Origin: Schmidtea nova
Taxonomy: Eukaryota
Length of the DNA stretch: 64,000 nucleotides
Reading direction: 5' to 3'
Assembly: GCA_044892505.1 (NCBI GenBank)
Contig: CM097883.1
Coordinates: 322,958,001 to 323,022,000, forward strand
Shown one piece after another: positions 3,733 to 24,698 of the stretch. The notes beneath the pieces were generated by a model that worked only from the letters and a program-made list of their open reading frames with translations, was not told the DNA's origin and ran no database searches. The position numbers and the translations under genes were made by a program. Within the stretch, counting starts at the first letter, position 1, and each line of letters begins with the position of its first letter.

Positions 3733-4317
3733 ATGCCGGTTTCAGAAAACTCGAAGAGAATCATGGGACAAATCCAAGATAGAAAGTTGAGGGACCAGCA
3801 GCGGCAGATCAAGCGACTCACGGTCGCCAATGATGAATTGAGAGCGAAGTGGTTCTCGTCCGAACAAATGAAGGACCAATCGAAAAAACTCGAGCGAATG
3901 CAGGAAGCACTGGCCGCAACTAAATTGGAACTAGACGCCGTCCAGAGAGAACTACGAAATTGCCTAACTGCAGTAACAAGAAGCTATATCGACTCCGAAT
4001 TACGAGCGCTAATCCGGCCGATCACGGCTCAGCGCTGGACACAAAGTACTTATCAAGATGTCGCTTGCGGGACGGAAGATGGTATCCTCATGGCCCCCAC
4101 TCTTGTAACGGCCGATTTGCCTACTTTTCACAGTGATCCATCGAGAACAATGGCGTCAGCACCTGTCCTAAACCAACCGCTTCGAAAACACCGAATGGGA
4201 TCGCGACAGCGTCGTCGTCGCCGAGAATTTGCGAAGCGCCTGGACGAGCAAATCCACCACTTAAACTCCTTAACCGAAGCAGAGTTGATTCAGGAGATTA
4301 GTCTGGAGTTTGCATAG
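3733..4317 (+). CDS. LTR-encoded ORF-B, 194 aa: coiled coil, arginine-rich motif (RKHRMGSRQRRRRR), Leu-rich C-terminus
   Basis: Heptad-like charged N-half; TTCAG acceptor-like site 6 nt before the ATG; AATAAA at 4359. Confidence 0.72.
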   Translation: MPVSENSKRIMGQIQDRKLRDQQRQIKRLTVANDELRAKWFSSEQMKDQSKKLERMQEALAATKLELDAVQRELRNCLTAVTRSYIDSELRALIRPITAQRWTQSTYQDVACGTEDGILMAPTLVTADLPTFHSDPSRTMASAPVLNQPLRKHRMGSRQRRRRREFAKRLDEQIHHLNSLTEAELIQEISLEFA

Positions 4318-4881
4318 GAAAACATCAATGTCAAATAACAACCTGTTTTTATTATTTTAATAAAAGTATTTTGTGTAAATTTTGTCTCTCATCGTATGAC
4401 TTCACTAAATAAAATAAATAACTCGATTAAATCATAGAAATAGAAAATCTCATCAGTATTTTTTTCAGACCGACCGTTTCTACGTAGAGACTGATTAATT
4501 ACCTTGTAGATCAGTTAAGGAAAGTGCAATTGGGGAAAGCGTGTGATAGATCATGAGGATAGGTAGTATAAAATTCATTGGGAAACGAACATCCGTAGAA
4601 TGTAAATGCGTAAGACCTTCTATCGGCAGCAAGGACCCGAGGGAAGATAAATGGGGAGTAGTTTTGGCAACAAAGCTCACCTGCCCATCATTTTTCCAAC
4701 CCCGTATGCAGTACCAACTTGACTAGTAGGGAATAGTCAAGGGCATGCGCGTGTAGTAGTCATGTTATGTATGGTTATGGGCGTGGAATCCCTAGTATAC
4801 GTACTCATCAATAGTCGTTCAATTAATGATTAACTATTTATTTGAATTACTTAAAACCCACCCATAATCCCAGCATAAATT

Positions 4882-4899
4882 TGGGGGCTCAGCCGGGAT
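4882..4899 (+). promoter_or_regulatory. Primer binding site, tRNA-Pro type
   Basis: TGGGGGCTCAGCCGGGAT matches the MLV tRNA-Pro PBS (TGGGGGCTCGTCCGGGAT) at 16/18 and lies 6 nt after the LTR end. Confidence 0.85.
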
Positions 4900-6470: not shown

Positions 6471-6486
6471 GGATATCCGGATATAT

Positions 6487-6760: not shown

Positions 6761-7305
6761 CGTCGACGATAATGAGAATAGTGCGCACCAATAATTGAGA
6801 AATGCGAGTAAAGCTGATTATGCGACCTAAAATAATGCATGCAAGTAGAATTGAGAAATAGGAGCTGACCGGAAAGACCGGCAGAATTAATAATTAGAGG
6901 CTAGCAGAGAGAAAGATAAAGAGATGATAAAATAATAAACGAGTCAAATGACTCAGGAAATTAGAGCGTTCGAACGACAAATAAATTGGGAGACCGCGGA
7001 AAAAATAATTGATGTATTTTAATAACCGATAGATAATTGTTATGACTAAATAGATAATTGTGACCAGTATATAGATAATTTAAATAGACTTAAATAAAGG
7101 GGAATCTGGGAATGGGGAAAAATAATAGAAACCCAGTAATGAGAAGTCCCGTAAAAAGGGAATAAAAGCGCAACGATAACAATAGAGTATCGTTGAAGTG
7201 ACATTTGTATTTTAGATAAATCAATCAAATGAAACCAATCAACCAAGGAAGAAAAGAATCGGAATACGATAAGACAGGAAAATTGAGTATACAAAAGTAA
7301 TCCCG

Positions 7306-9063
7306 TTGAGAAAAGGAGAAAAGAGTGTCATAATAAAACCAACAGAGAAGAAAGTCGACAATAAAAATAAAAAAAAAGATAAGACCGGTACGATAACAAA
7401 CCCAACAAAAAAGAAGAAAGCCGGCAAAGATAGTAACAAAAACCCAAAAGGAAGTAAAGCAAGGCAGATAATAATACAGAAGTCGATTATCGAAAAAGAT
7501 AAATTATCAGTAACAAGCAACAGTTCAAGCAACAAAGAAAATCAAGCAGAACCCGAGAGAAACCCAATAAGTGAAATAGAAGTCGACAAAACCAACAACG
7601 ATTATATAGAAGAAGTAGAAGACGAAAGAGAAGAAACAGAAAGTGACGATACCGATAACGATAGTAAAGTATCGGACAACGAATCAGCAAAGGAAACTGA
7701 GATCGACATAAATTCAAGTGACGAACATAATAGTGAACTAGAAACAAGAGGAAACGAAAGTAAAATAACTACAGACAGCGGAATCGAAATGAGCGAACCC
7801 AGAGAAGAGATAAAAGACAAATTTTCCGGAGAACCGTTTAATGGAGATGCGAGTAAATTGGAAACTTTCTTAAAAGAATTTGGCATATTCGTGGAAGTAT
7901 GCAAGTGGAAACCAGAAACAACTGTAAGCAGAATTCAGCTATATTTAAAAGATAGCGCATTAGATCTATATTTGGAAGCAAAAAATGGAATTAATCCACC
8001 TACAAGTTGGTCAGCGATAAAGGACTTTTTCCAACAAACCTTCGGAATAAATAAAGTATTGAATGAGGCATTCACGGAATTCTCAATGAGGAAACAAAAG
8101 ATAAATGAATCGAATGCGGTATATGCAAGCGAATTGAAAAAGTTAGCAAAGTTGATCTTTAATCAAGACAGCCCAATAAATGAGGAGTTAATGGCAGCTA
8201 TCTTTGTGGGAGGATTAAGAAGACCCGACATAAGAGCGCAAGTTGGATGTCAAGGTTGTAAAACCATCGACCAAGCACTAGAAACAGCTAATAGATTTGA
8301 ACTACACATGATAGGAAATGATGGTAGAATCTATTTGGCTATGGATACAGCACAAAACGAACAAGAAGTGAACCTGAATAACCACATTCCAAATTCACAA
8401 CAATTAAACCGACCACCACCGCAACGAAGGAATGAAGGGAATAAAGTATCAAATTTCGGAAATCAAAGCAATTACAACCCCCAAGGACCAACGAAACAAT
8501 GCAAAACATGTGGGAAATTGGGACATTGGCAACAAGAATGTTATCAGAACTTGAATTGTGGAAAATGTGGAGTAAAAGGACATTCAGAGAGCAGATGTTA
8601 CACAATAACCTGTTTTAATTGTGGACGACCTGGACACCTATCAAGAAAGTGCGGACAAAGAAGCAATCAACGAGGAAACTGGCAGAATATTGGAAACCGA
8701 CCAAACTATGGAAACCAACCAACTGGTGGGAACCAACCGAATTATGGGAATCAGCCAAATAATGGAAACCGACCGGAATACGGAAACCAGCAAAATAATA
8801 ATAATAATAACCAAAATAAAAACACCCCTAAAGAAATACATTTAATGCAAGAGGTTCAAAGATTGACGGAGCTGATAAACAATACAAACAGAGGAAATCC
8901 GCAAACAGGTCAACAACAAATCAACATGATGAGAAAAATAGAAAGCGAAAACGAACGATTGAATCGGGAAAGTCAAGCACGACATGCTCAGGAATGGGCA
9001 AGAATACAAAGAGAAGAGGAACAAAAAACAGCAAGAAAGAGAACGACAACCTCTAAGAATTAA
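7306..9063 (+). CDS. gag: Gag: K/DE-rich N-extension, capsid-like domain, three CCHC zinc knuckles, Q/N-rich repeats
   Basis: FNGDASKLETFL retrotransposon-gag-like segment and knuckles CKTCGKLGHWQQEC, CGKCGVKGHSESRC, CFNCGRPGHLSRKC. The listed start is TTG; the first in-frame ATG is at 7789. Confidence 0.93.
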   Translation: MRKGEKSVIIKPTEKKVDNKNKKKDKTGTITNPTKKKKAGKDSNKNPKGSKARQIIIQKSIIEKDKLSVTSNSSSNKENQAEPERNPISEIEVDKTNNDYIEEVEDEREETESDDTDNDSKVSDNESAKETEIDINSSDEHNSELETRGNESKITTDSGIEMSEPREEIKDKFSGEPFNGDASKLETFLKEFGIFVEVCKWKPETTVSRIQLYLKDSALDLYLEAKNGINPPTSWSAIKDFFQQTFGINKVLNEAFTEFSMRKQKINESNAVYASELKKLAKLIFNQDSPINEELMAAIFVGGLRRPDIRAQVGCQGCKTIDQALETANRFELHMIGNDGRIYLAMDTAQNEQEVNLNNHIPNSQQLNRPPPQRRNEGNKVSNFGNQSNYNPQGPTKQCKTCGKLGHWQQECYQNLNCGKCGVKGHSESRCYTITCFNCGRPGHLSRKCGQRSNQRGNWQNIGNRPNYGNQPTGGNQPNYGNQPNNGNRPEYGNQQNNNNNNQNKNTPKEIHLMQEVQRLTELINNTNRGNPQTGQQQINMMRKIESENERLNRESQARHAQEWARIQREEEQKTARKRTTTSKN

Positions 9064-12000
9064 TATGATGAGAGCAACCAATCAAACAAATACCCACGAG
9101 AAAGAGATTGTGCCAGAAATAAATCCAACAAACCCGAATCCAACCAACAACGAAGGCCGAAAAGAGATAATACAAGAAGATGAAGAAGCAGAAAAAGAAA
9201 CAGAAAAGGAAGTAGAAAAAGAAGGGAACCAAGAAGAGAAAAGGAAACTCGGGAAAAGAGGAATGATGGTAATTTTGCCAAACAAGCACGTGTTTCGATT
9301 CCAATATAACATAAAGGAAGAAGTAGGAATATTGTTCAACAAAGTGAATGAAATGGCTCCAGGAGTAACGAAACTGCCCAGAGAAGCATTCCTAAAAATA
9401 GAAGGTGCACCAGAAGTAAAATTGAAACTAACGGATACATGGGAAAACATGGGAGTAGTAGAGACAAAAAGAAATGTGATGGTAATCAAGGAAATAGAAC
9501 CAGAAGGAATTCCATCGCCAGTGCGTCACGAAACACGAATCAGTCGAATATTTAAAGGGAAAATGATACGAAGACGGTTGGGAGAAATAGACGAGTTAGA
9601 ACGAAAAATGAGAAAGGTCGAAGTAGTAGACGACAAGAGTAAATCAACACAAAAAACTATCAAAAGTGAGACGAAACCAACAGAAAATCCACCAAGCGAA
9701 ACCAACCAAATAAAACACATTAACATGTTGAGAGGCCAGGCAAAGAATTTCTCAGATGACGAAGAGGATAGTGACATCAGTAGTCTAGCAGGGGACATGC
9801 TAAACGAACCGGAAATTGAAGACAAAAAGATAGAAGTAGTAAAGACACCAGAAACTATTCAAGTAAAAGAAGACGAGATCCAGAAATTATTAGATAACGC
9901 GCTAGAAGTAATATATAATGAGGAATTCATCGACAAGAAACACTATCGGAAATTCATGAGAGCAATATTACAAATGAATTATAAAGAGTGGTTATCAGGC
10001 CGAGAAGTAGAAACACTAAGCCAATACGTAGGAAAATTATTAAAAGAACCACTCCATGAATATATAATCCTAATACAGATAAAAACATGTTTGCCAAGGA
10101 TTTGGATCAAAACTCCACTCACGGAGGACATTTATCAATGGGTAGAAGACAGATTAGGGAGTTCGTATAAGAACAAATTCCTCTATTCACAGAATGGACT
10201 AGTGAAGAAAAGGACGCATTTGATAGAAACAGGCATATGGCCAGGAGAGGTGACAACATTATCGATATGCGATGATAAGAGAGAAGAGAACCTACAAGAA
10301 GTAGCAAAGGAAGCGAATACGTGTTTCGAGAAGAAGATAAAACCACGGTTAGAATATGAGAAAGGACGAATCTTACGAGGAAATCTAAACTCCATGATAG
10401 AACAAATCATCCCACAAATCAAAAAACATAGAAAGGAGTTAATGAGAAGCGAGTACGAGAAGCTGAAACGATGTATCGAGTGCATACGTGACACAAGTCA
10501 CACGAGATGGTCACAGATCTCATACGGAAAAGTAATTGCCAAAATGGGAAAAGCAATGTTTAGACAAGGAAAAATAACAGATCTAAAAATTTCAGTGGAA
10601 CTGCCTAATGAGGATACCAAAGAAATTGAAGTGGTAGCAGATTGTACCATAAAAGAATTGGTGAACGTCATCAATGAGACGCTATTACAAAGAGAACCAG
10701 AAGAAGAATGGGAAGATGACATAATCATGAAATATAATGAACATGTATTATGGGATCACGATGAAAGACGGCTATATAAAATTGGTATATGGGATAATCA
10801 CCAAACCATCCACGTTATCAGAATGGACGATACACCAAGAGAAACTGCTAAAGATGAGAAAAGAGAACGGGAACGACAAAAAGAAGTTGTGCATAAATTA
10901 CAACAAATAGTAGACATCTATCGAAATTGGCGGATTTGGCCAGAATGGGAAAATGTATTAGAAGAACTCAATCTCAACAGACGATTACGAACACCTGTAG
11001 AAAAGAAATGGAACGAGCGAGGAAAATGTTGGGAACCAAAAGCAGGCGAATACGAAGAAGAATATGAAATAGGCATAGAAGACGATCACAAACCGGAAAC
11101 CGGAAGAGTCTGTATGGTAACAAGAAAAGCCATGCCAGCGGATTTAGACGGACCAGAAACGGCAACCATGTGGTTGGAAAGAGAAAAACAAAAAACGGAA
11201 GAATTTGTCGAAATATTAAAAACCAATGCTCATGGCAAGAGAAAATTAGTAAAAGGTCTCGCAGATTTTTTCGTAGTTAATGGAGAAGACATAACATGCT
11301 TGCGTAAAGTAGCAAAAGCAATCGCCGAATACAAAAGAGTTAACGAGTGGTGTCCAGAACAATTGGATCACGTAATTAAAAAATGGAGAAACCAAGAATT
11401 CTCGCAGGAATCGCCACAGAAAGTACACCTAAGAATAGTATATCCGAACCAAGAAAAGGAAGAGTTTTGGGTAGGGATAGCGGAGAAAGTTCGAGACATT
11501 AAAAAGAAATTGAGATATGAACCACCATTCCATTTACAACACCAAGGACGATCATTAGATAACAGCTTAGAAATTGGAATAACGCCAGCGCAATTAGATA
11601 TCGCAAATACATTGACAGTGGCAGCAATAGCAGGTCAACCATTGAAATTGAAAGAGGAAAAGAAACCAAAAGGAAGTATGAGTACGCCGAGCCCAACGAA
11701 ATCGGTAATGACTTCAGGAACAAGCTCAGAACAAGCTAGAACAACACCAAGAGAGACAAGAGAAAGAACACCACCAGAACCATACGATGTAGACGAAATT
11801 TTAACAGATAGCGATGATATGTTAGAAGAACTAATAGAGCTAACAAAAGAAAAAGATGATAATATTTTCGAAAGAATCCAAGAATTACCAACAGCAATAC
11901 CGGTAACCAACACCGAAGATGAAGTCGAACAAGAAATAATCATAGAAGAAGTAAATGAAATAGCAGAAGAGGAAGCAAGGAGGGCAAACGTAGAAAACGT

Positions 12001-15000
12001 ACAATTCACACAGGAAATGGAAAGATGGTTAGAAGAAAGAGCCAATGAACCAAGAGACGTCACAGAAGAAACTGGACGAGAAACGAGATTGGTAGAAACG
12101 GGCACGACAATGGATAAACGACCTATAGGTAGACCCAAGATGGATCCAGCAAACGTAGTTATAAAATCAAGAGAGGAAAAAAGACGGGATCAATGGGATT
12201 TGTGTCTAAAGAAACTAAATAAAATAGCCGAAACAAAAGAAAAAGAAACAACACAAACATACCAAGGCGAAGAATGGATATCAAAGATGTTAATAGAAAT
12301 ACTGGCAATAATCGATCCAGAATTAAAGAAATGGTGGAGAATAAGCGAAATAAGCGAAAGGGCAAAATCACTGCATAGCGCCATCGCACCAATCCTACCA
12401 GAACTAATAAAAGAAAAGACAAGGTCAAACCACCTAGATTGGCAAGGAACCACGATGTTGATAAAGAAGTTAACGGGAGGAGCAGAGACGGATAACAAAT
12501 ATTTAATAGCTATAGCATACACCATTTACAATCTGTTGACACTGAGTAGAGGTCGACTAAAACCCACAGCACTTGAAAGACATATAAAGAATACAGCCAA
12601 AATTATAGAGAAAGAAATAGAACCGTACATCATCAGTAAAGGAGGATGGGAAACATTCACAAAACCGAACCAAAAGAAAAACCAAGCCAAAAATATGAAA
12701 AAGAAATTCGAAGAGATATTGGGAGAATTGGAAAAGGAAAAGTCGGGAACAGGAAACGGGAAATCGTCACTAAACTTGAGTTCCATTATTATGATGATGT
12801 TAATATGGATGATTAGTACTGACGGCGCAACAGCATTTGAAGTATTCGATTGCGATCAAATGGCATTAGGTGAAAAATACTCATTACGAGGGACAGAACA
12901 ATGTAAAGACGCAACCCCAACGGAGCTAAAAACATTAAAAAAGAGACAATTATACCACGTATATCAGGAAGCGGAACTGATAAGAACAATGGTCAGAGAA
13001 TGCAAAGTTTATAAAACCAGATTTGCTTTTTATTGTGGGCAGCGCCATTATTCAGCAATCGTGATGCCAGGAACGGAAAGAGAATCGGTAATGCTGCAAG
13101 GAGAAGACTGTGAAAAATTATTCAAACATGGAGAAGTAGAGACTAGAGATAGAGTAAAGATAAGAGGAAAAACGGGAGTGATATTGCAACAAACATATTA
13201 TGTAGCAGGAGCTATTACGGGAGGAGAAGGGTATTGTCAAGGAGCAACATATCCAATATTCGGAGTAGCAGCAACAAACCTAGTAGTAATAGATACGTAT
13301 ACAGTGGAACTAAAAACGTACGAGGCATTCTTCGATCCAACGACGGGAGAAATGAAAACTCTACCTATGTGCAAAATCGAGTCAAACACTTGTCAAACCG
13401 GTATGTCAACCTTAACATACCAGATACGAGGAAAGGAATGTCAACTACAACTGTTAAAGGAAGCAGAATTCGATGAGATACAAGGGAAAACCTTCCAAGA
13501 GGAAGAAGAAGACGAGGCAGCAAGAGGAAAAATACTTCAAGACACCGTACGAGGAGAGAAAAAGATCGAAACACGAACACAAGAAAAACAAATTAAAATG
13601 AGAAATACACCAACGGTACTAATTACCTCAGATGCAGATATCGGAATGAGGTTTGTAAAAGGAAAAACAGCCTTGAAATGCGGAGTAGCCATGTTGGAAA
13701 CCAACTACCCCGGCATTTTCGTATCGAAACAAGAAGTACCTAGTGCGAAACGCAAAGTGAACACGAACGATGTTAAATTACACCTGTACATGAACAATAA
13801 AATGGATTTTCTATTCCATAGAGGACAAGCGTCACTACAAAAAGTGTATTACGACTTAATAAATAACGATTGTATATTAAATAGGGAAATATTAAAGACA
13901 AAACTAGCAGTAGCAATCACAAACCCGGACAGTGCAATGCCACTATTACCATTGAGAGAAGGTCATTTTGGAAGGGTAGTCGGAGAGGTCATGTACGTAT
14001 ACATATGTAAAAAGACAAACGCGAAGGTAGCGACAATGACAAAATTACAACCAGGTCAGTGTACTAACGAACTAGAAATCGAATATAAAGGGAAAGTAAG
14101 ATATGTGCAACCAGTGACAAGAATCATAAATCCAATAAGCTTCGAACCAAATCCTTTCAATTGCAGCAACGCATATGGACCACTATACCAAAAACCAGAC
14201 GGAAATTGGGTTATGTTTCCGTCAAGAACAGAGGTACCAGCACCAAGGGAATTTGAATTGATGCAACTATCAAAAGGACGAAAATTTAAAGACGTAGATG
14301 TAAGTAATATGGGATTCTATAGCGCAAAAGACTTAGAGGCAGCGAGACAAAACATACTATTTCCAGCAAGAAGGGAAGCGGTGCTATCCAGTATTGTAAC
14401 AATAACAGGAGGAACAAATTACCAAGGTGGACCAAATTACGAATTATTATTGTCACCAGCCCACTTTAAGAAGGCAACGGAAAACATGATGAAAGCGATG
14501 TGGGGAAGATTTTTAATATTTGGACAAATGATGGCAGGAATACTTGGTGTTATACTAATTATACAAATAATACGGGTAATAATAACGCAAATGTTAGCCT
14601 GTTTTGACATCTATAAACGAGAAAAGAAAGTAAATTGGAAATTGGTGGTAGGATTCTTACCATTTTTGGCTAAAACAATGGTATTACACGGCCATTCAAA
14701 AGATATTCACCGAATAAAAAGACTCCTAAAAATACTAGCAAAAATGAAAGGAACCGACGAAGAGGTGGGACGAAAATTTAAAAAGATAATGAATAACGAG
14801 CAAACAAGACAACAACTAAAGAAAGAGAGAAAAGGACTATGGGAAAGAATGAAAGGGTACAGAACCCAAGACGATTCCAGTGGCGACGATGATGATGATA
14901 ACGAAGGAGGCCAAGTATATAAAAATCAAGTACCACAATATGTCGAAAAAAATCCAGCAGAAATGTGGAAGTGTTACGCACCCCCACCAACCATGTACCA

Positions 15001-15085
15001 AGAACCAACACCAGGGATGAGACAAAATACAATGCAAATGATGCCGATGACAAACATATATCCTATGATACCAGAAGACTATTGA
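8984..15085 (+). CDS. env: 2033-aa ORF2: ubiquitin-like domains, Bcl-2-like domain, internal signal sequence, chuvirus/gB-like class III envelope glycoprotein, TM and tail
   Basis: UBL-like segments at ~10064-10268, 10583-10822 and 11420-11626. BH2-like IEPYIISKGGWETF at ~12617-12658. Signal-like IIMMMLIWMISTDGATA|FEVFDC. Cys-rich ectodomain with ECKV..FYCG and GHFGRVVGEVMYVYIC. TM at ~14510-14605. Confidence 0.8.
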   Translation: MLRNGQEYKEKRNKKQQERERQPLRINMMRATNQTNTHEKEIVPEINPTNPNPTNNEGRKEIIQEDEEAEKETEKEVEKEGNQEEKRKLGKRGMMVILPNKHVFRFQYNIKEEVGILFNKVNEMAPGVTKLPREAFLKIEGAPEVKLKLTDTWENMGVVETKRNVMVIKEIEPEGIPSPVRHETRISRIFKGKMIRRRLGEIDELERKMRKVEVVDDKSKSTQKTIKSETKPTENPPSETNQIKHINMLRGQAKNFSDDEEDSDISSLAGDMLNEPEIEDKKIEVVKTPETIQVKEDEIQKLLDNALEVIYNEEFIDKKHYRKFMRAILQMNYKEWLSGREVETLSQYVGKLLKEPLHEYIILIQIKTCLPRIWIKTPLTEDIYQWVEDRLGSSYKNKFLYSQNGLVKKRTHLIETGIWPGEVTTLSICDDKREENLQEVAKEANTCFEKKIKPRLEYEKGRILRGNLNSMIEQIIPQIKKHRKELMRSEYEKLKRCIECIRDTSHTRWSQISYGKVIAKMGKAMFRQGKITDLKISVELPNEDTKEIEVVADCTIKELVNVINETLLQREPEEEWEDDIIMKYNEHVLWDHDERRLYKIGIWDNHQTIHVIRMDDTPRETAKDEKRERERQKEVVHKLQQIVDIYRNWRIWPEWENVLEELNLNRRLRTPVEKKWNERGKCWEPKAGEYEEEYEIGIEDDHKPETGRVCMVTRKAMPADLDGPETATMWLEREKQKTEEFVEILKTNAHGKRKLVKGLADFFVVNGEDITCLRKVAKAIAEYKRVNEWCPEQLDHVIKKWRNQEFSQESPQKVHLRIVYPNQEKEEFWVGIAEKVRDIKKKLRYEPPFHLQHQGRSLDNSLEIGITPAQLDIANTLTVAAIAGQPLKLKEEKKPKGSMSTPSPTKSVMTSGTSSEQARTTPRETRERTPPEPYDVDEILTDSDDMLEELIELTKEKDDNIFERIQELPTAIPVTNTEDEVEQEIIIEEVNEIAEEEARRANVENVQFTQEMERWLEERANEPRDVTEETGRETRLVETGTTMDKRPIGRPKMDPANVVIKSREEKRRDQWDLCLKKLNKIAETKEKETTQTYQGEEWISKMLIEILAIIDPELKKWWRISEISERAKSLHSAIAPILPELIKEKTRSNHLDWQGTTMLIKKLTGGAETDNKYLIAIAYTIYNLLTLSRGRLKPTALERHIKNTAKIIEKEIEPYIISKGGWETFTKPNQKKNQAKNMKKKFEEILGELEKEKSGTGNGKSSLNLSSIIMMMLIWMISTDGATAFEVFDCDQMALGEKYSLRGTEQCKDATPTELKTLKKRQLYHVYQEAELIRTMVRECKVYKTRFAFYCGQRHYSAIVMPGTERESVMLQGEDCEKLFKHGEVETRDRVKIRGKTGVILQQTYYVAGAITGGEGYCQGATYPIFGVAATNLVVIDTYTVELKTYEAFFDPTTGEMKTLPMCKIESNTCQTGMSTLTYQIRGKECQLQLLKEAEFDEIQGKTFQEEEEDEAARGKILQDTVRGEKKIETRTQEKQIKMRNTPTVLITSDADIGMRFVKGKTALKCGVAMLETNYPGIFVSKQEVPSAKRKVNTNDVKLHLYMNNKMDFLFHRGQASLQKVYYDLINNDCILNREILKTKLAVAITNPDSAMPLLPLREGHFGRVVGEVMYVYICKKTNAKVATMTKLQPGQCTNELEIEYKGKVRYVQPVTRIINPISFEPNPFNCSNAYGPLYQKPDGNWVMFPSRTEVPAPREFELMQLSKGRKFKDVDVSNMGFYSAKDLEAARQNILFPARREAVLSSIVTITGGTNYQGGPNYELLLSPAHFKKATENMMKAMWGRFLIFGQMMAGILGVILIIQIIRVIITQMLACFDIYKREKKVNWKLVVGFLPFLAKTMVLHGHSKDIHRIKRLLKILAKMKGTDEEVGRKFKKIMNNEQTRQQLKKERKGLWERMKGYRTQDDSSGDDDDDNEGGQVYKNQVPQYVEKNPAEMWKCYAPPPTMYQEPTPGMRQNTMQMMPMTNIYPMIPEDY

Positions 15086-15139
15086 ACGAGACGGTGCAGA
15101 AGCGTAGATCCGCAAGGAGACTCACATACAATTGCAGTA

Positions 15140-15817
15140 ATGTCATCAAACACCGGTCCAGTATTAACCACCACAATCGAAATTAACGGAAGGGAAATTG
15201 AAGCGATGATTGATACAGGAGCAAATATCTCAGCAATAGATATAAAATGGATACCACAAGAACAAAGACGGGAGATTGAGAGAACCAACGTTCACGTAAT
15301 AGCATGCAGTAAAGAAGTAGTAGAAGTTGCCGGAAGATGGTGGGTAAAGATAAAACATCAAAACACGGAAATCGAAACGTACGTAGCAGTAATACCAGCA
15401 CTAAGCGTACCATGCATTATAGGCACGGATCTGATGCCAGCATTATTTAAAGAAATAGTTATTGATCTCGGAACAATGAGACTAAAGGATAGGACAGGAC
15501 AGATATGCGCAATAGAAGCAAAAGTAACAAGTTCGAAACAAATAATCGTACCAGCCCGGAGAGAGAAAATATGTTTCGTAAAAATAGATCCTACAATAGA
15601 AGGTGACATGATCTTTGAACCCAGTAAAAGATTTGAAAAGAGAAAGTCGTTGCCAATGGCAAGGGGATTAGTGAGTGCGAATGACAACGGAGAAATCCCA
15701 ATAAATGTAGTAAATTTCGATGAAGAGGATAAAATAATTTATGAAAATGAAAGATTAGGTAAACTAACTCCAATGATGGATATCGAAATACCAATAAGAG
15801 AGGGAGAAAAAAGATGA
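15140..15817 (+). CDS. Retropepsin aspartic protease followed by a possible degenerate dUTPase-like spacer
   Basis: AMIDTGANISAI catalytic motif and CIIGTDLM flap-distal motif. In frame with ORF2 across a single TGA. Confidence 0.92.
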   Translation: MSSNTGPVLTTTIEINGREIEAMIDTGANISAIDIKWIPQEQRREIERTNVHVIACSKEVVEVAGRWWVKIKHQNTEIETYVAVIPALSVPCIIGTDLMPALFKEIVIDLGTMRLKDRTGQICAIEAKVTSSKQIIVPARREKICFVKIDPTIEGDMIFEPSKRFEKRKSLPMARGLVSANDNGEIPINVVNFDEEDKIIYENERLGKLTPMMDIEIPIREGEKR

Positions 15818-18800
15818 AGAACCCACCTGGAACATTGATAGCCAACTATTAAATGAGGATCAAAAGAAACAGCTAGAAAGATTACTGATAGAATATAAAG
15901 ACATATTCGCAGCATCCGATTTAGATCTAGGGACATGCGACGTCACACTACATACGATTCCACTAACAGACGAAACGCCGATTGCGTTAAGACCATACAA
16001 GTTAGCTGAAGCGCAAAAATCAGTAGCAGAAGCAGAAGTACAGAAAATGCTAGACGCAGAAGTAATTGAACCAAGCTGCTCACCGTGGCAATTCCCAGTT
16101 GTAATGGTGAAAAAGAAAGACGGAACACAACGATTTTGTATTGATTATCGGAGATTAAATGCGGTAACAAAACGGGATACATACCCATTACCAGACATCA
16201 ACGAGATGTTATTGACATTACAAGGAGCGGCATATTTTACATCATTGGATTTGAAAAGCGGATACTGGCAAATTAAAATGAAGGAGGAAGACAAAGAGAA
16301 AACTGCTTTCACTATCGGAAGAGACTTGTACCAATTTAGGAAAATGCCATTCGGACTAACCAATGCGCCAGCATCATTTCAAAGATGTATGAATTTCGTT
16401 ACCCACGGCATAAAACAATGCATGGTTTACATTGATGACCTACTAATCTACTCAAGCACATTTGAACAACACATCCAAGATATCAGAGATGTATTTGTGA
16501 GATTGAGACAATGGAAACTCAAGCTCAAACCATCGAAATGCGATTGGGCAAAGGAGAAAGTGACATTCTTAGGACATATTGTGTCCGCAAAAGGAAAGGA
16601 ACCAGATCCCAGAAACATTGATAAAGTAAAAGAATGTCCAGTACCAAAGACGATAACGCAGATCCAAGAATTTCTCGGATTATGCGGTTACTATAGGAAA
16701 TTCATAAAGGATTACGCAGGAATTGCAAAACCAATCCAAGAACTAGTGAAGAAAGACGTATCATTCATATGGGGAAGCGAACAACAAACCGCCTTCGAAA
16801 CATTGAGAGATAAGTTAATAACTGCACCAATATTGGTTCACCCGGATTTCAAGAAGCCGTTCTTACTCGCGACTGACGCAAGTGGATATGCAGCAGGAGC
16901 AGTGTTAGGACAATATGATGACGAAAGTAAAGAACGAGTAATTGGATACTATAGCAGAACATTCAAGAAACACGAGAAGAATTATTCAGTAACGGAAAGA
17001 GAAGCATTGGCGATAATATTAGCAATAAAACACTTTAAATATCTACTATGGGGACACGTTATATGCATAACCACGGATCATCAACCACTTGTATGGCTAG
17101 GACAACATAAGGAAACATCCAGCAGATTAATGAGATGGGCGATGCAATTACAAGAATATTCACCAGATATAAAATTCAAATCAGGAAAAGCGAATGCCAA
17201 CGCAGATTGCATGTCAAGATTAACGTTTCCAGAACTAACAGACCCAGAAGTGCAAAGAATATGCATAGTGATAGCAGAGGATTTGGATTTCAGCGAGTTA
17301 AAGAAAGATCAGCAAGAGGATAAAGAACTAGGACCCATAAAAGAATTCCTAAGCTCACGGAATATGGATGTATTCAAAGACAATGCGGAGTTAAAAGAAC
17401 ACATGAGGAAATACCAACATCGATACACAATAGAAAAAGGATGGTTGTTAATACAAGATGGAGAGAAACGATTAATGTGTCTGCCAGGCAATAGACGAAA
17501 AGAGATAATAACTCAATACCACGACGGAAAGTTGGGAGGACACATGTCCGACAAGAAAACATTAGATCGCATGAGACAAAAATATTATTGGCCAACAATG
17601 GACGAGGACGTAAAGGAATGGATAAAGAACTGTTTAACTTGTGCCACAAGAAAAGATAGTGGGAAGAAATGGAAAAATCCCTTAAAACCCATGCCGATAC
17701 CAGCAGAACCAATGACTACCATTGCGATGGATGTAATAGGACCGTTGCCAGAAAGTTTAAACGGGAATCAATATATATTGGTAATAACGGATTATTTGAC
17801 TAAATTCCCTGAGGCATTTGCGATGCCGGATCAAAAAGCAAAGACCGTAGCAAGAATTTTAGTAGAGGAAATATGTTGTCGATACGGAACCCCGAAACAA
17901 ATACTGACAGATCAAGGAACAAATTTTATGAGCGAAATATTAGATGAAGTAACAAACTACTTCAGAATAGCCAAATTACGAACGTCACCATATCATCCGC
18001 AAACCAATGGACAAACGGAAAGATTTAACGGCACATTGATTCGAATGTTATCCAATTATGTAAGCAAACATCAAACAGATTGGGATGAATACGTAAAGCT
18101 ATGTCTAATGGCATACCGAATGTCGATACACGCAGCAACAAAACTGAGTCCATTTCAATTAATGTATGGAAGGGAATGCAATATGCCAATAGATCTTGAA
18201 TATCAACCACCTTTGTCTCAATATATGGAGGAAGATGATTACGTCACCAAATTCAAAGAACGAATGCAAGAGATATGGAAGACAGCAGAACTAAACATAA
18301 AGTTTTATCAAGAAAGTTACAAGGACCTACACGATCAAAAGAAAAATGTTAAAACAAATAATCTTAAACCCGGAGATTGGGTAATGATAGAAACCCCAGA
18401 AATAATACCAGGAACCGTTAAAAAACTACAAAGACCAGGAAAAGGCCCTTACGAAGTTATATACAAAAAGGAAAACAATGTGAAGGTAAAACTTGTTAAT
18501 CGACCATTGATACGACCAATATACGTTAATACATGCAGATGTAAGAAAGTACCAAAAACAATAACCACAGCGCCAGAAGAACGAATAATAACCAGATCCC
18601 AGACAGCCAGAATGAATATGCTCAGAGCAACCAATGAAAGTACCGAAGCAGAAAACAATCAACAAGAAAAAAGAAACAAGGAAATTGTACTAAAAGCCAG
18701 AGAAATAATGGGAAAATGGCATGTCAGAGACGATATATTAAGAGATATACAGTTGATAATTAGTGATTACGCAAGGGGACTACCAACAAAACCAGTCATT

Positions 18801-21800
18801 TCAGAACTACTGGAAAAAATTCCAGAAGTACTTTTACTACAAGACATAGGAGGACAACCAGCATTACATAACGCCATAAAATGGGGAGAAGTAGAGAGAG
18901 TAAAAGAATTTCTAAAAATCGCTAAGGAAACAAACCAACACCTTGGTTTTGGGAATAGCGAACAAGAAACACCATTAATGGTAGCGGCCATCTACAAATC
19001 GGATAAAGCAATAGTAGACCTTTTGATAAATGCCAATTTCAACTGGACGGAACGCGATAGAGAAAACAAAACAGTCTTGAATCACGCAATATGGAGCTCA
19101 AATCAGATAATGCTCAAACAAATAATCGAGAAGGCCACTTGGGAAATCGACGAACTGATCAAAGGTGATATAATCAAGGAGGCAATAAAAATCGGTAACA
19201 GCAAAACAATACGCAAGCTAATAAAATGGAAAAGATCTGAAAATGATACATGGGTGTTAAATATAAACGAGGTATACAGTGAAGGACAAAACGCGTTATT
19301 ACAATTTCTATTAAAATTCGTTTGTGATCAGAAAACACTGTTAACGTTATTAGATAGAGGAAATATCATAATTTCCAAAAACATAGAGGAGTGTAAATTC
19401 GAAAGTGAAAAAGAAGCATTATTCAGGAATATTAGGGAATGGTGTGCAAAATCGCTAACCAAGACGATAACTTACAAAGATATATCCAGTTTTCATGATA
19501 AATACAAAACGGTGGAGGAAGAGTATGGCAGACTAATAGACATATTAAACCACCCCGAAAAATGCAAACAATTCCTATGTCGAAAGGAAAGAGAAAGCAA
19601 AAGGAAATTTACACCACTTTTCAGCGCAGAGGTACCATATCAAGAAAGGTTGGATGCGATACAAGACAAAGCAAAAGAACTATTACCAGAATTCGAAAAT
19701 TCTAAACATACACTGGAGATACTCGGAGCAATTGTGGAAAAGGTACACGCATACGCGGAAGGAACTTACAATGAAAACGATATGATGATCATAAAAAGAG
19801 AAATGCCAGTAACTTTCTTATTAACAAAGAATGGAGTATTGCCAATACATAGAGCCTTACGAGCAAGAAAAGAGAGGAGGATAGTCGAAATTGCACGGTT
19901 GATGCAAGATTGCGGAAATGACATGAACATGAAAGATAAAAAGGGAGATACCCTCATGATATTCGCAGCAAGAGCGAACACAAAAACCCGAGTGTTACAG
20001 GAACTGTACGAAGCAGGTGCAGGGCTCATGGGAAGAACGGGCAAAGACAGCTCAATACTAGACGTAGCATTGTTAACGCACAATTGGGAGGTGATAAATT
20101 TTATAAAAACAATCACAAATCAGGAAGAAATAGAATACCTTACAAGGACAGTTAAAAAAGCTAGCGTACATTCCATGATGCATAACACTGAACTAACCGA
20201 AGCAATACTCAATTGGATGAACCCAAACACCAATGAACCAGCATTCAGGATCAACGAGTTCATGGAACAAGGCCAAAATTTATATATAAAGTGTGCATTA
20301 ATAATAAACAAATGGCCAAAGATAATAGACATCTTCATGAGAAGAAACGATTTACGATTCACAAACAACCCAAAGGAAACAGAACGTACGGAAAAATGGA
20401 AAGAACTAATGAAAACGTACCTTAATAATTGGATAAAAGCCAAGAAAGAGATTCTAGATTGTAAATTAACCGATAAGGAAATACCTAAACAGGCATTAAC
20501 ACAAGAATATGAAGCAAGTATACTCACAACCATAACGTATGAAAAAATGATAGAAGCAATTAATGTCGAGGACGACATTTTTAACGACCAAAGGGGAGGC
20601 GACAATACAGGAAGCGACGACGATAGTACTCGAGAAAATCCAGAGGATCATGAGTTATCAGATAAAGAGGACAGTGAAGAGAAAGGAAGGGACACAGAGA
20701 AAAATGATAAGAAAAATGAATTTGGGAAACAAAGAAACAACAACTATAAAAATAAAAACGAAGCAAAAAGAACAGGCTACAAACAAACAATAAACCCATT
20801 CCTTAAACCAGAACTATTATTACTAACGGTAATCATGACCTTAATTAGTCCAACTCAAGGAATGATATGTGAAGAAAGAGCGACAATACAAATTAGAAAC
20901 GCAAAAGGAATCGAACGAGTATGTTGGTCAAAAAAGGACAAAATCTCGGGACAAAATAGTCCAATGGATTGCAGGATCTCAGAATACGAACAAGAAATCA
21001 TAGAGATCGATGACTTAGAGCTAGATACTTGGTACAAAATATGCACCATCAGAAAACAAAGGAATCCAAGATCACACAACACAATCGCATGTGCAAACTA
21101 CCTAACACCCAAAGTAACCATAACAGTACAGCAGTCATCCAAAGGAGACTATGTCGTAGGAAAGTGTGGAAGAACAGAGACACAAGGAACAAAAAACAAG
21201 AAACCCCAGACAATAGATAGACGAACAACGCCAACTATACGAATTACAATAGACAAGCCCGAAGCAAGAGTAACCACAAACGAAACCGAAAGAGTGACCT
21301 ACCAAACAGAACTACTATGTTTAGCACTCATATTAACAATGTTAAAACGGTTAGAAGAAGGGATAGACATTGAGACAATGGCAGTAACAGAGATGAACGA
21401 CACCCAAAATACCAACCCAAAGTGTTGGGCCAGAAACAACGAAGAAATTGGCATAAGCGAAATAAAGACGAGTCGGAAAAGGAAAACAAATAAAGTAACC
21501 AAGATATCAAAATTAAAAGCAGACAGGACGTATGAACTATGTTTACTAGAAAAAGAAAGACACAAGAAAGGAACGACAATTTGTAAAACATTTCAACCCG
21601 GGGAAGCAATAAAGTTCATAAGAAGAAGAAGAAATATACGCACCAAACGGAGAACAACTATAATGTTGGAGTTAACCGGAATAGAACCGGACGTCAAAGG
21701 CGTATGCTGGAAGAAGCAGGAAAGGAAAACAAACCAGAATACACCGCCGCAATGTCAAACAAACAGAGGAACAACCACAATACAGATAGAAGGATTAGAA

Positions 21801-22751
21801 AGCAATCAAACGTACGAAATATGCTTGATTAGGAAAAGCGACAAAATAACAGTAAATGAATTGGAATGCAAATTATATAAAACACCCACCAGAACAAGAG
21901 TTGGAAAGACAACGCGAAAAAGTAGAAGACAACGGAACAAAGGAAAAGCGAGGTATACCACTACTTTTAAACCTAATGGACAACAGAAAAACCAAGAAAT
22001 ACAAATAAAAGCCGAAAAGAATACTACAGCAACTCTTATACTATGGAGAATAGACAATAAAACGTTAGAAATATGTTGGGTAATAGTTCAGAAACAAAGG
22101 GAAAGACAGCCACGAAACTGTGGAAACGTGAAAGGAAAAGAGGAAATAAGTATCAGAAATCTGAAATTCAATAGCGAATACGAGATATGTGCGATAGAAA
22201 AGACGGACATATTGGGAAATCAGCAGGAAAGATGCGAAACGTACTACACACCGGTAAACTCAACGTCCAAAGGGAAAGTGAGAAAACTCGAATTTAGAGA
22301 ATTAAGTCAGACAACGGAACAAATGGACGCAGAACAAGTAGTAATAGACCCTTACGCAAGATGGACGCCGGAAGAAGTAATTAAAGAAGTTAAAAGAAAA
22401 CAACAAGAACGAGAACAACTACTAAATAAACTAAAGGGACAATACGGACCAATGATTAACCAAAGTGAAATTACAAAGATAGACACAAACAAACAAGTTA
22501 GAGAACTAATTGGTCTAGGAATACTAGCAGCAACTATTCCAGTAATAACAGTGTTATTAATAATATGGATATACGATGTACTCAACAAGAAACCAATAAC
22601 ACATTGGCCAGATATAAAAATTATGAACTACAGAATAGAATTACCGGAAGAAGTACAGAAAGAATTTCAAAGGAGGACGAAAGGTAAAGAATTTTGGAGA
22701 CAAATAGAAGATGAAGAGCGGTACGAAGGAAAGACAGTGATGGTGATATAG
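15798..22751 (+). CDS. pol: Pol (RT, RNase H, integrase with GPY/F) extended by ankyrin clusters and an FN3-repeat membrane protein
   Basis: Frame is open from 15798 (…LIEYKDIF…PIALRPYKL…) although the ORF track starts at 16047. Motifs: YIDDLLI (RT), TDASGYAAGAVL (RH), HDGKLGGH..CLTC, MDVIGP/TDQGTNF/GQTERFN (IN), GPY. ANK motifs at ~18840-20340, signal-like segment ~20810-20861, FN3-like repeats ~20862-22260, TM ~22506-22574. Confidence 0.95.
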   Translation, partial: EREKKDEEPTWNIDSQLLNEDQKKQLERLLIEYKDIFAASDLDLGTCDVTLHTIPLTDETPIALRPYKLAEAQKSVAEAEVQKMLDAEVIEPSCSPWQFPVVMVKKKDGTQRFCIDYRRLNAVTKRDTYPLPDINEMLLTLQGAAYFTSLDLKSGYWQIKMKEEDKEKTAFTIGRDLYQFRKMPFGLTNAPASFQRCMNFVTHGIKQCMVYIDDLLIYSSTFEQHIQDIRDVFVRLRQWKLKLKPSKCDWAKEKVTFLGHIVSAKGKEPDPRNIDKVKECPVPKTITQIQEFLGLCGYYRKFIKDYAGIAKPIQELVKKDVSFIWGSEQQTAFETLRDKLITAPILVHPDFKKPFLLATDASGYAAGAVLGQYDDESKERVIGYYSRTFKKHEKNYSVTEREALAIILAIKHFKYLLWGHVICITTDHQPLVWLGQHKETSSRLMRWAMQLQEYSPDIKFKSGKANANADCMSRLTFPELTDPEVQRICIVIAEDLDFSELKKDQQEDKELGPIKEFLSSRNMDVFKDNAELKEHMRKYQHRYTIEKGWLLIQDGEKRLMCLPGNRRKEIITQYHDGKLGGHMSDKKTLDRMRQKYYWPTMDEDVKEWIKNCLTCATRKDSGKKWKNPLKPMPIPAEPMTTIAMDVIGPLPESLNGNQYILVITDYLTKFPEAFAMPDQKAKTVARILVEEICCRYGTPKQILTDQGTNFMSEILDEVTNYFRIAKLRTSPYHPQTNGQTERFNGTLIRMLSNYVSKHQTDWDEYVKLCLMAYRMSIHAATKLSPFQLMYGRECNMPIDLEYQPPLSQYMEEDDYVTKFKERMQEIWKTAELNIKFYQESYKDLHDQKKNVKTNNLKPGDWVMIETPEIIPGTVKKLQRPGKGPYEVIYKKENNVKVKLVNRPLIRPIYVNTCRCKKVPKTITTAPEERIITRSQTARMNMLRATNESTEAENNQQEKRNKEIVLKAREIMGKWHVRDDILRDIQLIISDYARGLPTKPVISELLEKIPEVLLLQDIGGQPALHNAIKWGEVERVKEFLKIAKETNQHLGFGNSEQETPLMVAAIYKSDKAIVDLLINANFNWTERDRENKTVLNHAIWSSNQIMLKQIIEKATWEIDELIKGDIIKEAIKIGNSKTIRKLIKWKRSENDTWVLNINEVYSEGQNALLQFLLKFVCDQKTLLTLLDRGNIIISKNIEECKFESEKEALFRNIREWCAKSLTKTITYKDISSFHDKYKTVEEEYGRLIDILNHPEKCKQFLCRKERESKRKFTPLFSAEVPYQERLDAIQDKAKELLPEFENSKHTLEILGAIVEKVHAYAEGTYNENDMMIIKREMPVTFLLTKNGVLPIHRALRARKERRIVEIARLMQDCGNDMNMKDKKGDTLMIFAARANTKTRVLQELYEAGAGLMGRTGKDSSILDVALLTHNWEVINFIKTITNQEEIEYLTRTVKKASVHSMMHNTELTEAILNWMNPNTNEPAFRINEFMEQGQNLYIKCALIINKWPKIIDIFMRRNDLRFTNNPKETERTEKWKELMKTYLNNWIKAKKEILDCKLTDKEIPKQALTQEYEASILTTITYEKMIEAINVEDDIFNDQRGGDNTGSDDDSTRENPEDHELSDKEDSEEKGRDTEKNDKKNEFGKQRNNNYKNKNEAKRTGYKQTINPFLKPELLLLTVIMTLISPTQGMICEERATIQIRNAKGIERVCWSKKDKISGQNSPMDCRISEYEQEIIEIDDLELDTWYKICTIRKQRNPRSHNTIACANYLTPKVTITVQQSSKGDYVVGKCGRTETQGTKNKKPQTIDRRTTPTIRITIDKPEARVTTNETERVTYQTELLCLALILTMLKRLEEGIDIETMAVTEMNDTQNTNPKCWARNNEEIGISEIKTSRKRKTNKVTKISKLKADRTYELCLLEKERHKKGTTICKTFQPGEAIKFIRRRRNIRTKRRTTIMLELTGIEPDVKGVCWKKQERKTNQNTPPQCQTNRGTTTIQIEGLESNQTYEICLIRKSDKITVNELECKLYKTPTRTRVGKTTRKSRRQRNKGKARYTTTFKPNGQQKNQEIQIKAEKNTTATLILWRIDNKTLEICWVIVQKQRERQPRNCGNVKGKEEISIRNLKFNSEYEICAIEKTDILGNQQERCETYYTPVNSTSKGKVRKLEFRELSQTTEQMDAEQVVIDPYARWTPEEVIKEVKRKQQEREQLLNKLKGQYGPMINQSEITKIDTNKQVRELIGLGILAATIPVITVLLIIWIYDVLNKKPITHWPDIKIMNYRIELPEEVQKEFQRRTKGKEFWRQIEDEERYEGKTVMVI

Positions 22752-22789
22752 GAGGCGGGATATGACTGTAAATAATAGTGTAAATAACA

Positions 22790-23290
22790 ATGCATTACCG
22801 TAATAGTATGGGTATCGATATTATAAAAATACAAAAAGAGAAACCGAAAACGATTAATGTATATAATTTAGAAATGAACGAACAGGAAGAAATAGCAGAA
22901 ACTACTATGGCTATGCGATGGAAAGCCCAGTGTGACATGTTAATACGAACGATCAACTCACTACAAAATCAGTTAATTGAGAAACAGAATTTGTTATCCG
23001 AAAGTTATAATAATAGTTTTGAACAACTCCACAGAATCGAGGAGCAACAGAGATTGATAACGCAACTTACCAGAGAGAATCAAATGATGAGCGACATAAA
23101 TCAGAGACAAGCAATAGAGATAGACCGTTTAACAATGGGAGAGACAGAAGAAGCAGAGGATGGATGGACAAATTGGGCAATAAACAGATCAGAAAATGAC
23201 CCAGAACCAGATTCAACAAACGAGCCGTGGATAAATAAAGCGAAAAATTGTAAATATGTAAAAACAAAAACAAGAAAAATCAAAAAATAG
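22790..23290 (+). CDS. 166-aa coiled-coil accessory protein, unknown function
   Basis: Heptad-rich LQNQLIEKQNLL…LITQLTRENQ; same strand and codon bias as the element. Confidence 0.7.
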   Translation: MHYRNSMGIDIIKIQKEKPKTINVYNLEMNEQEEIAETTMAMRWKAQCDMLIRTINSLQNQLIEKQNLLSESYNNSFEQLHRIEEQQRLITQLTRENQMMSDINQRQAIEIDRLTMGETEEAEDGWTNWAINRSENDPEPDSTNEPWINKAKNCKYVKTKTRKIKK

Positions 23291-23321
23291 ATAACAAATC
23301 AAGTGTATATATCATTGTAGA

Positions 23322-24698
23322 ATGAATACAGAAGGAAAAGCCGAAGAGCGGATAATCGAAATTTTGAGAGCCGAGAACAGGAAATGGAGTCAGAGACTCA
23401 CTTGTGTAAATTGTAAAAACATAATATTGAAACCAAGACAAACCCTATGCGGATGCAGAGTATGTACCAAATGCATACACGAGTTAAGTATGAAAAGACC
23501 ACCAGAATGTCCAGAATGCAAAGGACAAATAAAATTCGAAGAAACCAGACCAGATAGAGCAACTCAGAGAGAAATCATGAACACGAAAACCGAATGTATA
23601 AATCAACCATGTATATGGCAAGGACAAATACGCGATCTCGAGAACCATCTGGAGAACTGCGAAAAGAAAACTGAATGTAACAAATGCCAACAAAAAATAA
23701 CTATAAAGAATAAAGAGCAGCACAAAGATGAATGTAAAGAAGAGGAAAGTCTATGCGAATATTGTGGAACTCGAGAAACGAGGAGAAAGATCGAAGAAGA
23801 ACACCTGAATGTAAAAGAGGAGAAAGTATGTAGACAATATGTAGGAATATGTTCAAACGAATGCGAGATAACGGTAGAAGTAAAATTACAAGAACATTGG
23901 AAAGTGTGCACGGAGAAACCAAGGGAATGTCCTTATAACAAACAGGGATGTATGGAGAAAAGAACGCAACAAACCATGAAACAACATCTGGAGGAAGCAT
24001 TGCTAAAGCATGCGGAAATGACAAACGAAGCAACAAAAGAAACCGAACAAACGATCAAAAAATTAGAAAGAGAAATAGAGTCACACAAGATAATGGTAAG
24101 CCTACTGTTGGAAACCAGAGAGCAATTCGAACTAACACGAGAAAAAATGAAGAGAAAGATAAAAGCTATTGAAGAATTGGCTAAAGGAATGAAAATCCAA
24201 TACAACAAACTCACCCAGGATACCGAGGAAAAGCTACCAATCGCACCATACGTATGGAAAGTGACAGATTTTAGAGACAAATTAACACAGGCCCGAAACA
24301 TGACGAAAACAGCAGTAATAAGCCCACCATTTTATTTATGGAGAAACGGAGCTAAAGTGAGATTGAAGCTATACCCAAATGGAGACGGAAGAGGACGAGG
24401 AACACATGTGTCAATATTTTTCTCGCTATGTAAAGGAGAATACGACGACCTAGTAGAATGGCCCTTGAAAGTAGGAGTCATTGTAAGAATCAGAAGTGTA
24501 ACAAAACCAGTAGAAAAATTCTTTGAGACAGAGAAACATGCGAGTACAAGCGAGAAACCAACCACAGAATGTGGATTAGCAGCGGGAGAACCGATGTTTA
24601 TAACGAAAGAAAGCCTATGGGAACGATTATATGCAGACACCCTATATATAGAAATGGAAAGGAACGAGAAAGCGGATAGAAAAGGATGGTTGACGTAA
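23322..24698 (+). CDS. TRAF: Full-length intronless TRAF-family protein (RING, TRAF zinc fingers, coiled coil, MATH/TRAF-C)
   Basis: RING CVNC..KPRQTLCGCRVCTKC..CPEC, then PDRATQREI and zinc fingers. MATH domain YVWKVTDF…SPPFY…KLYPNGDGRGRGTHVSIFFSLCKGEYDDLVEWP parallels TRAF2/3/5. Confidence 0.95.
   Translation: MNTEGKAEERIIEILRAENRKWSQRLTCVNCKNIILKPRQTLCGCRVCTKCIHELSMKRPPECPECKGQIKFEETRPDRATQREIMNTKTECINQPCIWQGQIRDLENHLENCEKKTECNKCQQKITIKNKEQHKDECKEEESLCEYCGTRETRRKIEEEHLNVKEEKVCRQYVGICSNECEITVEVKLQEHWKVCTEKPRECPYNKQGCMEKRTQQTMKQHLEEALLKHAEMTNEATKETEQTIKKLEREIESHKIMVSLLLETREQFELTREKMKRKIKAIEELAKGMKIQYNKLTQDTEEKLPIAPYVWKVTDFRDKLTQARNMTKTAVISPPFYLWRNGAKVRLKLYPNGDGRGRGTHVSIFFSLCKGEYDDLVEWPLKVGVIVRIRSVTKPVEKFFETEKHASTSEKPTTECGLAAGEPMFITKESLWERLYADTLYIEMERNEKADRKGWLT

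Follow-up and report, generated by a model that had tools for sequence, protein, structure and literature searches.

Our analysis of a 64,000-nucleotide stretch of Schmidtea nova DNA (hereafter the window) highlights the envelope gene (env) of a giant, Burro-type Ty3/Gypsy retroelement. This env is a class III gene of the chuvirus and glycoprotein B (gB) type, in intact members of the family it forms an in-frame part of a single polyprotein, some 5,100 residues long, and in copies that multiply it is held by purifying selection as tightly as the reverse transcriptase (RT). We consider it likely, with good though not full confidence, that its product is cut out at the membrane of the endoplasmic reticulum (ER) and then acts as the fusogen of an enveloped particle. 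An env in frame between gag and pol has already been published, and no new class of element is opened here; what this analysis adds is selection on env as strong as that on RT, a second predicted signal-ectodomain-anchor module that ends the polyprotein, and a working model that can be tested, for an element already in print but not yet explored.

Fold and reading frame of the envelope gene

The initial annotation of the window described env as a chuvirus-like, gB-like class III glycoprotein, a claim that is borne out by both profile and structure. All eight motifs that it quoted lie in one frame, at 12836-14060, and the gene matches the Pfam family PF24664 (Monjiviricetes_fusion) with 240 bits against a cut-off of 27 (E 4.4e-71). 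The AlphaFold model of the protein, with 98 aligned sequences, has a predicted local distance difference test score (pLDDT) of 91.9 and a 48-residue central helix (residues 315-362). Structural comparison with chuvirus G, gB and vesicular stomatitis virus G had been proposed as a check, and it agrees with the assignment: the best BFVD matches of the model are chu-like virus glycoproteins (E 2e-38 to 4e-35, TM-score up to 0.69), every listed PDB match from Foldseek is a herpesvirus gB (best E 8e-14), and in the VIA comparison gB gives Z 11.1, with a root-mean-square deviation (rmsd) of 6.1 over 398 residues, and vesiculovirus G gives Z 6.4. These three sets of matches rule out a class I or class II fold and the fold of a non-fusogen. 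Of the 14 cysteines in the ectodomain, ten show at least 90% conservation among 131 aligned sequences. The predicted signal stretch in front of the ectodomain (12770-12835) is alike in 20 other copies but for single changes, and in all 12 relatives examined env is preceded by a signal-like stretch that has small residues ahead of the env start. This agrees with the internal signal and transmembrane (TM) helix that the initial annotation had proposed, both being predictions from hydropathy.

The position of env, after the gag zinc knuckles and before protease (PR), RT, RNase H (RH) and integrase (IN), follows from the Pfam order and is the one claimed for it, between gag and pol and upstream of the protease. 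The companion claim that env lies inside a polyprotein holds for sister copies and fails for the copy in the window, where a stop codon had been overlooked: the env-bearing frame (8963-15085) ends at a TGA at 15083-15085, straight after the env tail. PR (15086-15817) and RT (15798 on) are also in different frames in this copy, as are gag (7273-9063) and the env-bearing frame. A genome search returned 1,609 candidate copies, 40 of which were scored, at 97-100% identity; further env-bearing families of the same genome account for 3,413 candidates, with 68 scored. Among 20 other genomic copies the env/PR junction is open in all, the PR/RT junction in 19, and the junction between gag and the cargo region that follows it (X) in all 16 that could be assessed, four not being assessable; the stretch from gag to RT is unbroken in 11 of the 20. 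Open frames of 5,067-5,162 codons occur in 33 of 87 listed copies with at least 90% identity in a fibronectin type III (FN3) repeat. Intact family members, then, encode env within a single long polyprotein, and the window copy does not.

Because these junctions are open in other copies, the three breaks are private damage of the window copy and not recoding. An in-frame TGA between env and PR is what read-through retroviruses have, and the stop and frame changes might be taken for programmed recoding or splice signals that set the ratio of Env to Pol. We find this hardly credible: the TGA is absent from 20/20 other copies, the other two breaks are absent from 19/20 and 16/16, and programmed read-through or frameshifting at the three sites was rejected on these counts. 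The window copy is a young but broken insertion that, with its three interruptions, could have moved only with functions supplied in trans.

Selection and the second membrane module

The strength of selection was estimated from pairwise counts of nonsynonymous and synonymous changes (pN/pS), the pairs not being independent of one another, across 21 copies for env, RT, gag and X and across 20 copies (19 plus the window, with the stretch L031, which falls on the wrong side of its copy, left out) for the 3' part of the element. The env signal plus ectodomain gives a pN/pS of 0.023 (95% codon bootstrap 0.014-0.035), and RT gives 0.032, gag 0.054 and X 0.097; in the 3' comparison the integrase gives 0.071, the ankyrin repeats 0.22, an accessory TRAF gene 0.26 and the FN3 module 0.37. 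With 0.023 for env against 0.032 for RT, env is therefore as constrained as RT. Near-identical copies present in hundreds offer a direct read-out of selection, and an env constraint equal to that of RT argues for a cell-entry or fusion step in the spread of the element, in an animal that serves as a model of regeneration and in which RNAi is a routine method.

The polyprotein has a further membrane module at its end. The ankyrin repeats are followed by a second signal-like stretch, by four repeats that share a pattern of four cysteines, and by a strong TM helix and a short tail; repeats 1 and 3 are 34% identical (E 2e-11). Several weak lines suggest that in the window family these repeats are FN3-like: Pfam Fn3_ELFN is matched weakly (E 0.046), the Atlas matches of the region are all FN3, yet under 0.9, and the top matches of the structure model are fibronectin type III repeats (E 6e-7), with Z 7.6 and an rmsd of 2.4 over 71 residues for a single domain. 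No homologue of the region was found among proteins of 304-970 residues. A signal, an ectodomain and a TM helix (a hydrophobic pair) follow the integrase in all four distant relatives that are long enough (P0152, P0004, P0009 and P0014), three of which carry an FN3-type motif. Two other env-bearing families of the same genome (L103-L106) likewise end their polyprotein with signal, ectodomain and TM helix, the ectodomain being of different sequence; in these families a separate open reading frame (ORF) after the polyprotein shows, by eye, DEDDh-exonuclease-like motifs. In a sister family (L101:1-5625 and L102:3-5618), about 68% identical over the post-integrase part and with frames of up to about 5,690 codons, the signal-FN3-TM module stands twice in tandem, and six membrane crossings are predicted. 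In the literature searched we found no account of the second module or of the topology, though the figures of PMC6431247 and PMC13524379 may show it. Such a signal-ectodomain-anchor cassette, exchanged and duplicated from one family to another, would give the retroelement a surface protein distinct from its fusogen.

Predicted topology and competing explanations

We propose that the intact polyprotein is threaded through the ER membrane in the following way. Gag and the cargo would be made in the cytosol, after which the internal signal would open translocation and signal peptidase would free the N-terminus of env; the same cleavage would leave the Bcl-2-like domain upstream of the signal tail-anchored. 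The env ectodomain would then lie in the lumen, with TM1 stopping transfer, so that PR, RT, RH, IN and the ankyrin repeats could fold in the cytosol and be released by the element's protease. The second signal would send the FN3-like repeats into the lumen, where TM2 would anchor them, and the net result would be a polyprotein that crosses the membrane four times. A further hydrophobic stretch after TM1 (14642-14686) has a counterpart in all 16 sequences shown, chuvirus and BEL-type env included, often with a Cys-Cys pair. We read it as a likely surface helix and not a spanning one, because pol would end up in the lumen if this stretch also crossed the membrane, and because it scores worse than TM1 in 15 of the 16 sequences (on a crude insertion scale) and is shared with chuvirus and BEL-type env.

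Several observations weigh against this model and against a fusion function, and we acknowledge them here. The topology rests on hydropathy and on that same crude scale, and the four-crossing arrangement changes if either the stretch after TM1 or a helix within the FN3 region spans the membrane. That helix, at 21294-21350, scores 3.5 against 2.8 for the second signal; its likeness in register to the second signal is what a duplication of signal plus FN3 would give. The model of the FN3 region is of low quality as a whole (pLDDT 47.6, with Z no higher than 8.0), and its seven N-glycosylation sequons are near chance (shuffle mean 4.8), so that sequons were dropped as evidence for a lumenal position. 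In env, the ectodomain has a single sequon, and the tips of the predicted fusion-loop hairpins are present in the model but only weakly hydrophobic. Strong selection on env could, instead of reflecting fusion, have its cause in the attached pol, which would be destroyed along with a lumenal domain that misfolds. No RNA run is among those listed as matching the element, and the four runs that are listed, from one study and with contigs of unrecorded kind, are consistent only with a high copy number.

Our preferred reading, in which env is released at the ER and probably fuses an enveloped particle with cells, must also be weighed against explanations that give env other work to do. Env may be inserted in the membrane but act without free virions, fusing neighbouring cells or vesicles, moving capsids (from stem cell to germline, for example) or blocking receptors against related viruses. 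One polyprotein gives equal Gag, Env and Pol, unlike retroviruses, the accessible text of PMC6431247, PMC13465017 and PMC8532177 describes no particle, and receptor interference has been proposed, in the portion available of 10.1101/2020.02.15.950899, for solo chuvirus-type glycoproteins in mosquitoes. Against this stand selection that acts on env in multiplying copies, which fits the element's own cycle better than a benefit to the host, and the retention of the full ectodomain, TM helix and tail; we judge this explanation unlikely, if a serious one. Much less probable still is that env no longer fuses and is kept since it is locked in frame, its folding or anchor being needed for the survival of pol and its assembly at the ER. 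An in-frame position does force an open frame, and weakly hydrophobic loop tips would suit a protein that has lost its activity, but the constraint on env (0.023) exceeds that on cargo X (0.097), the ankyrins (0.22) and the FN3 module (0.37), and relatives at 28-47% identity still have the class III fold in full.

Fusion by env also admits a bolder extension, that Burro-type elements are infectious, two-glycoprotein planarian viruses. One polyprotein, threaded four times through the ER (six in the sister family), would then yield a class III fusogen that is conserved and, beside it, an FN3-type protein that changes fast and acts in attachment or as a decoy, the env signal would double as the tail anchor of the Bcl-2-like domain, and every multiplying lineage would pass through a fusion step. 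As a whole we regard this picture as tentative and rather improbable. If it were true, the FN3-type protein would sit at the usual position of env, after the integrase, and the division of labour would resemble that of gB with its receptor-binding partners.

Anatomy, relatives and known systems

The Ty3/Gypsy element spans 28.5 kb (1574-30033; 28,460 bp) between two 3.3-kb long terminal repeats (LTRs) that are 99.79% identical over 3309 nt (four mismatches and two gaps by self-BLAST), and it is flanked by a 4-bp target duplication, AAAT, at 1570-1573 before the 5' LTR and 30034-30037 after the 3' LTR (Table 1). The LTRs differ at 4 of 3,309 sites, whereas the interior is 1.9-2.8% off 20 other copies and carries the three breaks besides, a combination that reflects either a recent move of a defective copy or homogenisation of the LTRs. 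The putative primer-binding site (PBS) is one that we take to be tRNA-Pro-like; its 15-nt core pattern has 3,904 matches in the genome and its reversed control none, and a matching host tRNA gene was absent from all eight loci scanned of these 3,904. Tandem repeats with units of 30 nt and about 43/55 nt occupy 6110-6321 and 6483-6773 of the 2.4-kb 5' leader.

Table 1. Features of the element in the window (all on the forward strand)
Feature	Position	Strand	Basis or remark
5' LTR	1574..4875	+	TG...CA ends; other LTR copies start matching at or near 1574
PBS-like 18-mer	4882..4899	+	Sequence directly after LTR
gag frame (first Met 7789)	7273..9063	+	Capsid-like domain, three CCHC knuckles; Pfam zf-CCHC E 3e-8, Retrotrans_gag E 9e-4
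Cargo region X	8963..12355	+	About 1,100 residues; ubiquitin-like stretches by eye only
Bcl-2-like domain	12356..12691	+	Directly upstream of env signal; assigned via relative P0007
Internal signal sequence (predicted)	12770..12835	+	Hydropathy; predicted cleavage just before FEVFDC
Class III (Monjiviricetes/gB-type) fusion-protein ectodomain	12836..14527	+	Pfam, structure model
env transmembrane helix TM1	14528..14590	+	Hydropathy; helix in model
Second hydrophobic stretch after TM1	14642..14686	+	Conserved; likely membrane-surface, not spanning
In-frame TGA interrupting window copy	15083..15085	+	Open in 20/20 other copies
Aspartic protease frame	15086..15817	+	Pfam RVP E 1e-9; frame change to RT in window copy
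RT, RNase H, integrase, ankyrin repeats	15798..20810	+	Pfam
Second membrane module	20811..22751	+	Signal-like 20811-20858, four Cys-patterned FN3-like repeats, TM2 22509-22568, short tail
Accessory ORF, no assignment	22784..23290	+	
Accessory TRAF gene (RING-like, zf-TRAF, MATH)	23295..24698	+	Pfam MATH_2 E 1e-20
Accessory ORF, charged, probably coiled-coil	24772..25872	+	
Accessory ORF with one transmembrane stretch	25935..26510	+	
3' LTR	26734..30033	+	Self-BLAST, ends read

Membership in Ty3/Gypsy follows from the Pfam order PR-RT-RH-IN and from the best PDB sequence match of RT-IN, which is Ty3 Gag-Pol (E 3e-121), far above the RTs of foamy virus and murine leukemia virus (MLV). BEL/Pao identity was rejected, there being no DUF5641 or Peptidase A17 match at E 0.1 in seven window proteins and RT-IN being closest to Ty3; DUF5641 was detected in the control, P0055. 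Region X has no match in the Pfam scan. The Bcl-2-like region gives no direct Pfam, PDB-sequence or Atlas match of its own and is homologous to the corresponding stretch of P0007 (E about 5e-9 within a nine-sequence set), a protein that matches Pfam Bcl-2 at E 1e-3; a GGW motif is present in five of the nine sequences. The word (R/Q)-(I/V)-(N/C)-M-(M/V) recurs at 8917, 9056 and 11105 and is a possible site for the element's own protease, a looser version giving six matches against a shuffle mean of 0.9 and a maximum of seven in 500 shuffles. Polyprotein tails and one accessory ORF have hydrophobic C-termini that resemble PDZ ligands, several of them with the form T-x-V; they are seen at 22700-22751 and 25850-25872 of the window and in L103, L106, P0152 and P0009.

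Outside the element the window holds a 275-residue ORF just beyond the 3' LTR (30219-31046, reverse strand) with no clear Pfam match, a hAT transposase remnant (33273-35207; Dimer_Tnp_hAT E 2e-16), a 4-kb, TA-flanked unit at 55107-59079 with 1.35-kb terminal inverted repeats (92.7%), which resembles a non-autonomous Tc1/mariner-type element, and a gag-pol frame of an ordinary Gypsy kind, 1,280 residues long and unrelated to the element (60043-63885, reverse strand).

A HMMER library search with env returned 842 proteins at E 0.001, and a word-index search gave two near-length homologues and none longer. The closest relatives, at 28-47% identity, are long polyproteins: among the 14 top relatives scanned, long or partial, nine have env and protease in one chain, and five of these nine have RT too. 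Stand-alone homologues of 650 residues are 21-28% identical, one of them being the glycoprotein of Wufeng shrew chuvirus 2. In a quick tree of 106 rows, made from C-terminal halves only, 15 env of polyprotein type, a label resting on RT or protease matches for part of these rows, group together (SH-aLRT 92, or 99 with eight stand-alone proteins added), apart from the sole BEL-marked env and the sole named chuvirus protein. For one relative, the env-PR-RT-IN polyprotein P0009, the NCBI record reads hypothetical protein of Flavobacteriaceae, taken from a metagenome bin, which is most likely eukaryotic contamination. Multiple aspartic-protease-like domains lie between env and RT and after the integrase in P0152 (up to seven stretches) and P0003-P0006.

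The initial annotation had also argued for an independent acquisition of env. The grouping in the quick tree fits an origin separate from that of mosquito BEL/Pao env, and to this extent the suggestion stands, though the tree names neither donor nor date, and PMC13524379, as far as its accessible text goes, argues for ancient, largely vertical descent of such env.

Among viruses, the closest likeness is to the G of Chuviridae/Jingchuvirales and to herpesvirus gB, with which the window env shares the class III fold over the whole ectodomain. Those proteins have an N-terminal signal and a gene of their own, whereas the window env has an internal signal and a tail that runs on into the protease. 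Alphavirus and flavivirus polyproteins are threaded through the ER by internal signals and stop-transfer anchors and are cut by host signal peptidase and their own protease; these viruses use class II fusogens, and their topology is an analogy only, as they are unrelated to the window element. Among retroelements, the BEL-marked P0055 has its env after the end of the integrase and falls in another part of the env tree. The mosquito element Anakin, as presented in 10.1101/2020.02.15.950899, is an LTR element with an envelope of the same Pfam family, a chuvirus glycoprotein, but belongs to BEL/Pao and not to Gypsy.

The premise that enveloped Gypsy elements carry only a baculovirus-F env 3' of pol is out of date in light of PMC6431247 and PMC13524379. 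The accessible text of PMC13524379 reports gB-type env and a GAG-ENV-POL order in Platyhelminthes, Nematoda and Bryozoa and lists six Schmidtea mediterranea elements, Smed_errantivirus_1-6, of cysteine type C1a. The Platyhelminthes errantiviruses described there share with the window element this order, a class III env flanked by signal or TM stretches, a coding span of 14.5-18 kb and multiple copies, and the env fragment of Smed_errantivirus_5 follows the window env motif by motif, as compared by eye and not by an alignment tool. The words "polyprotein" and "fibronectin" do not occur in that paper's main text, and we noticed no selection analysis of copies in its accessible parts.

The element most like ours is Burro, for which the accessible text of PMC6431247 reported in 2019 an env in frame between BCL2 and PR, with matches to mononegavirus fusion glycoproteins, and called it the first such case; other work concerns the B-IAP of Burro1 (PMC13465017) and control by piwi, whose knock-down increases the amount of BURRO1 RNA (PMC8532177), as far as the accessible text of each goes. 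The review text of PMC6431247, in its accessible part, makes no mention of signal peptides, topology or a second ectodomain. The BIR/IAP and dUTPase-like cargo of Burro has no Pfam match in the ORFs scanned here, no profile-profile search having been made. In the window element TRAF has an ORF of its own, located downstream of the polyprotein, whereas, according to PMC6431247, it lies inside ORF1 in Burro1 and in an upstream accessory ORF in the Dugesia tigrina element. Compared by description and not by direct sequence comparison, Burro1-4/GYPSM1 and the window element share a length of about 28-30 kb, LTRs of several kb, one polyprotein of about 5,000 residues with three CCHC knuckles, a Bcl-2-like domain followed by env and then PR-RT-RH-IN, ankyrin repeats, and TRAF/MATH cargo (PMC6431247, from its accessible text).

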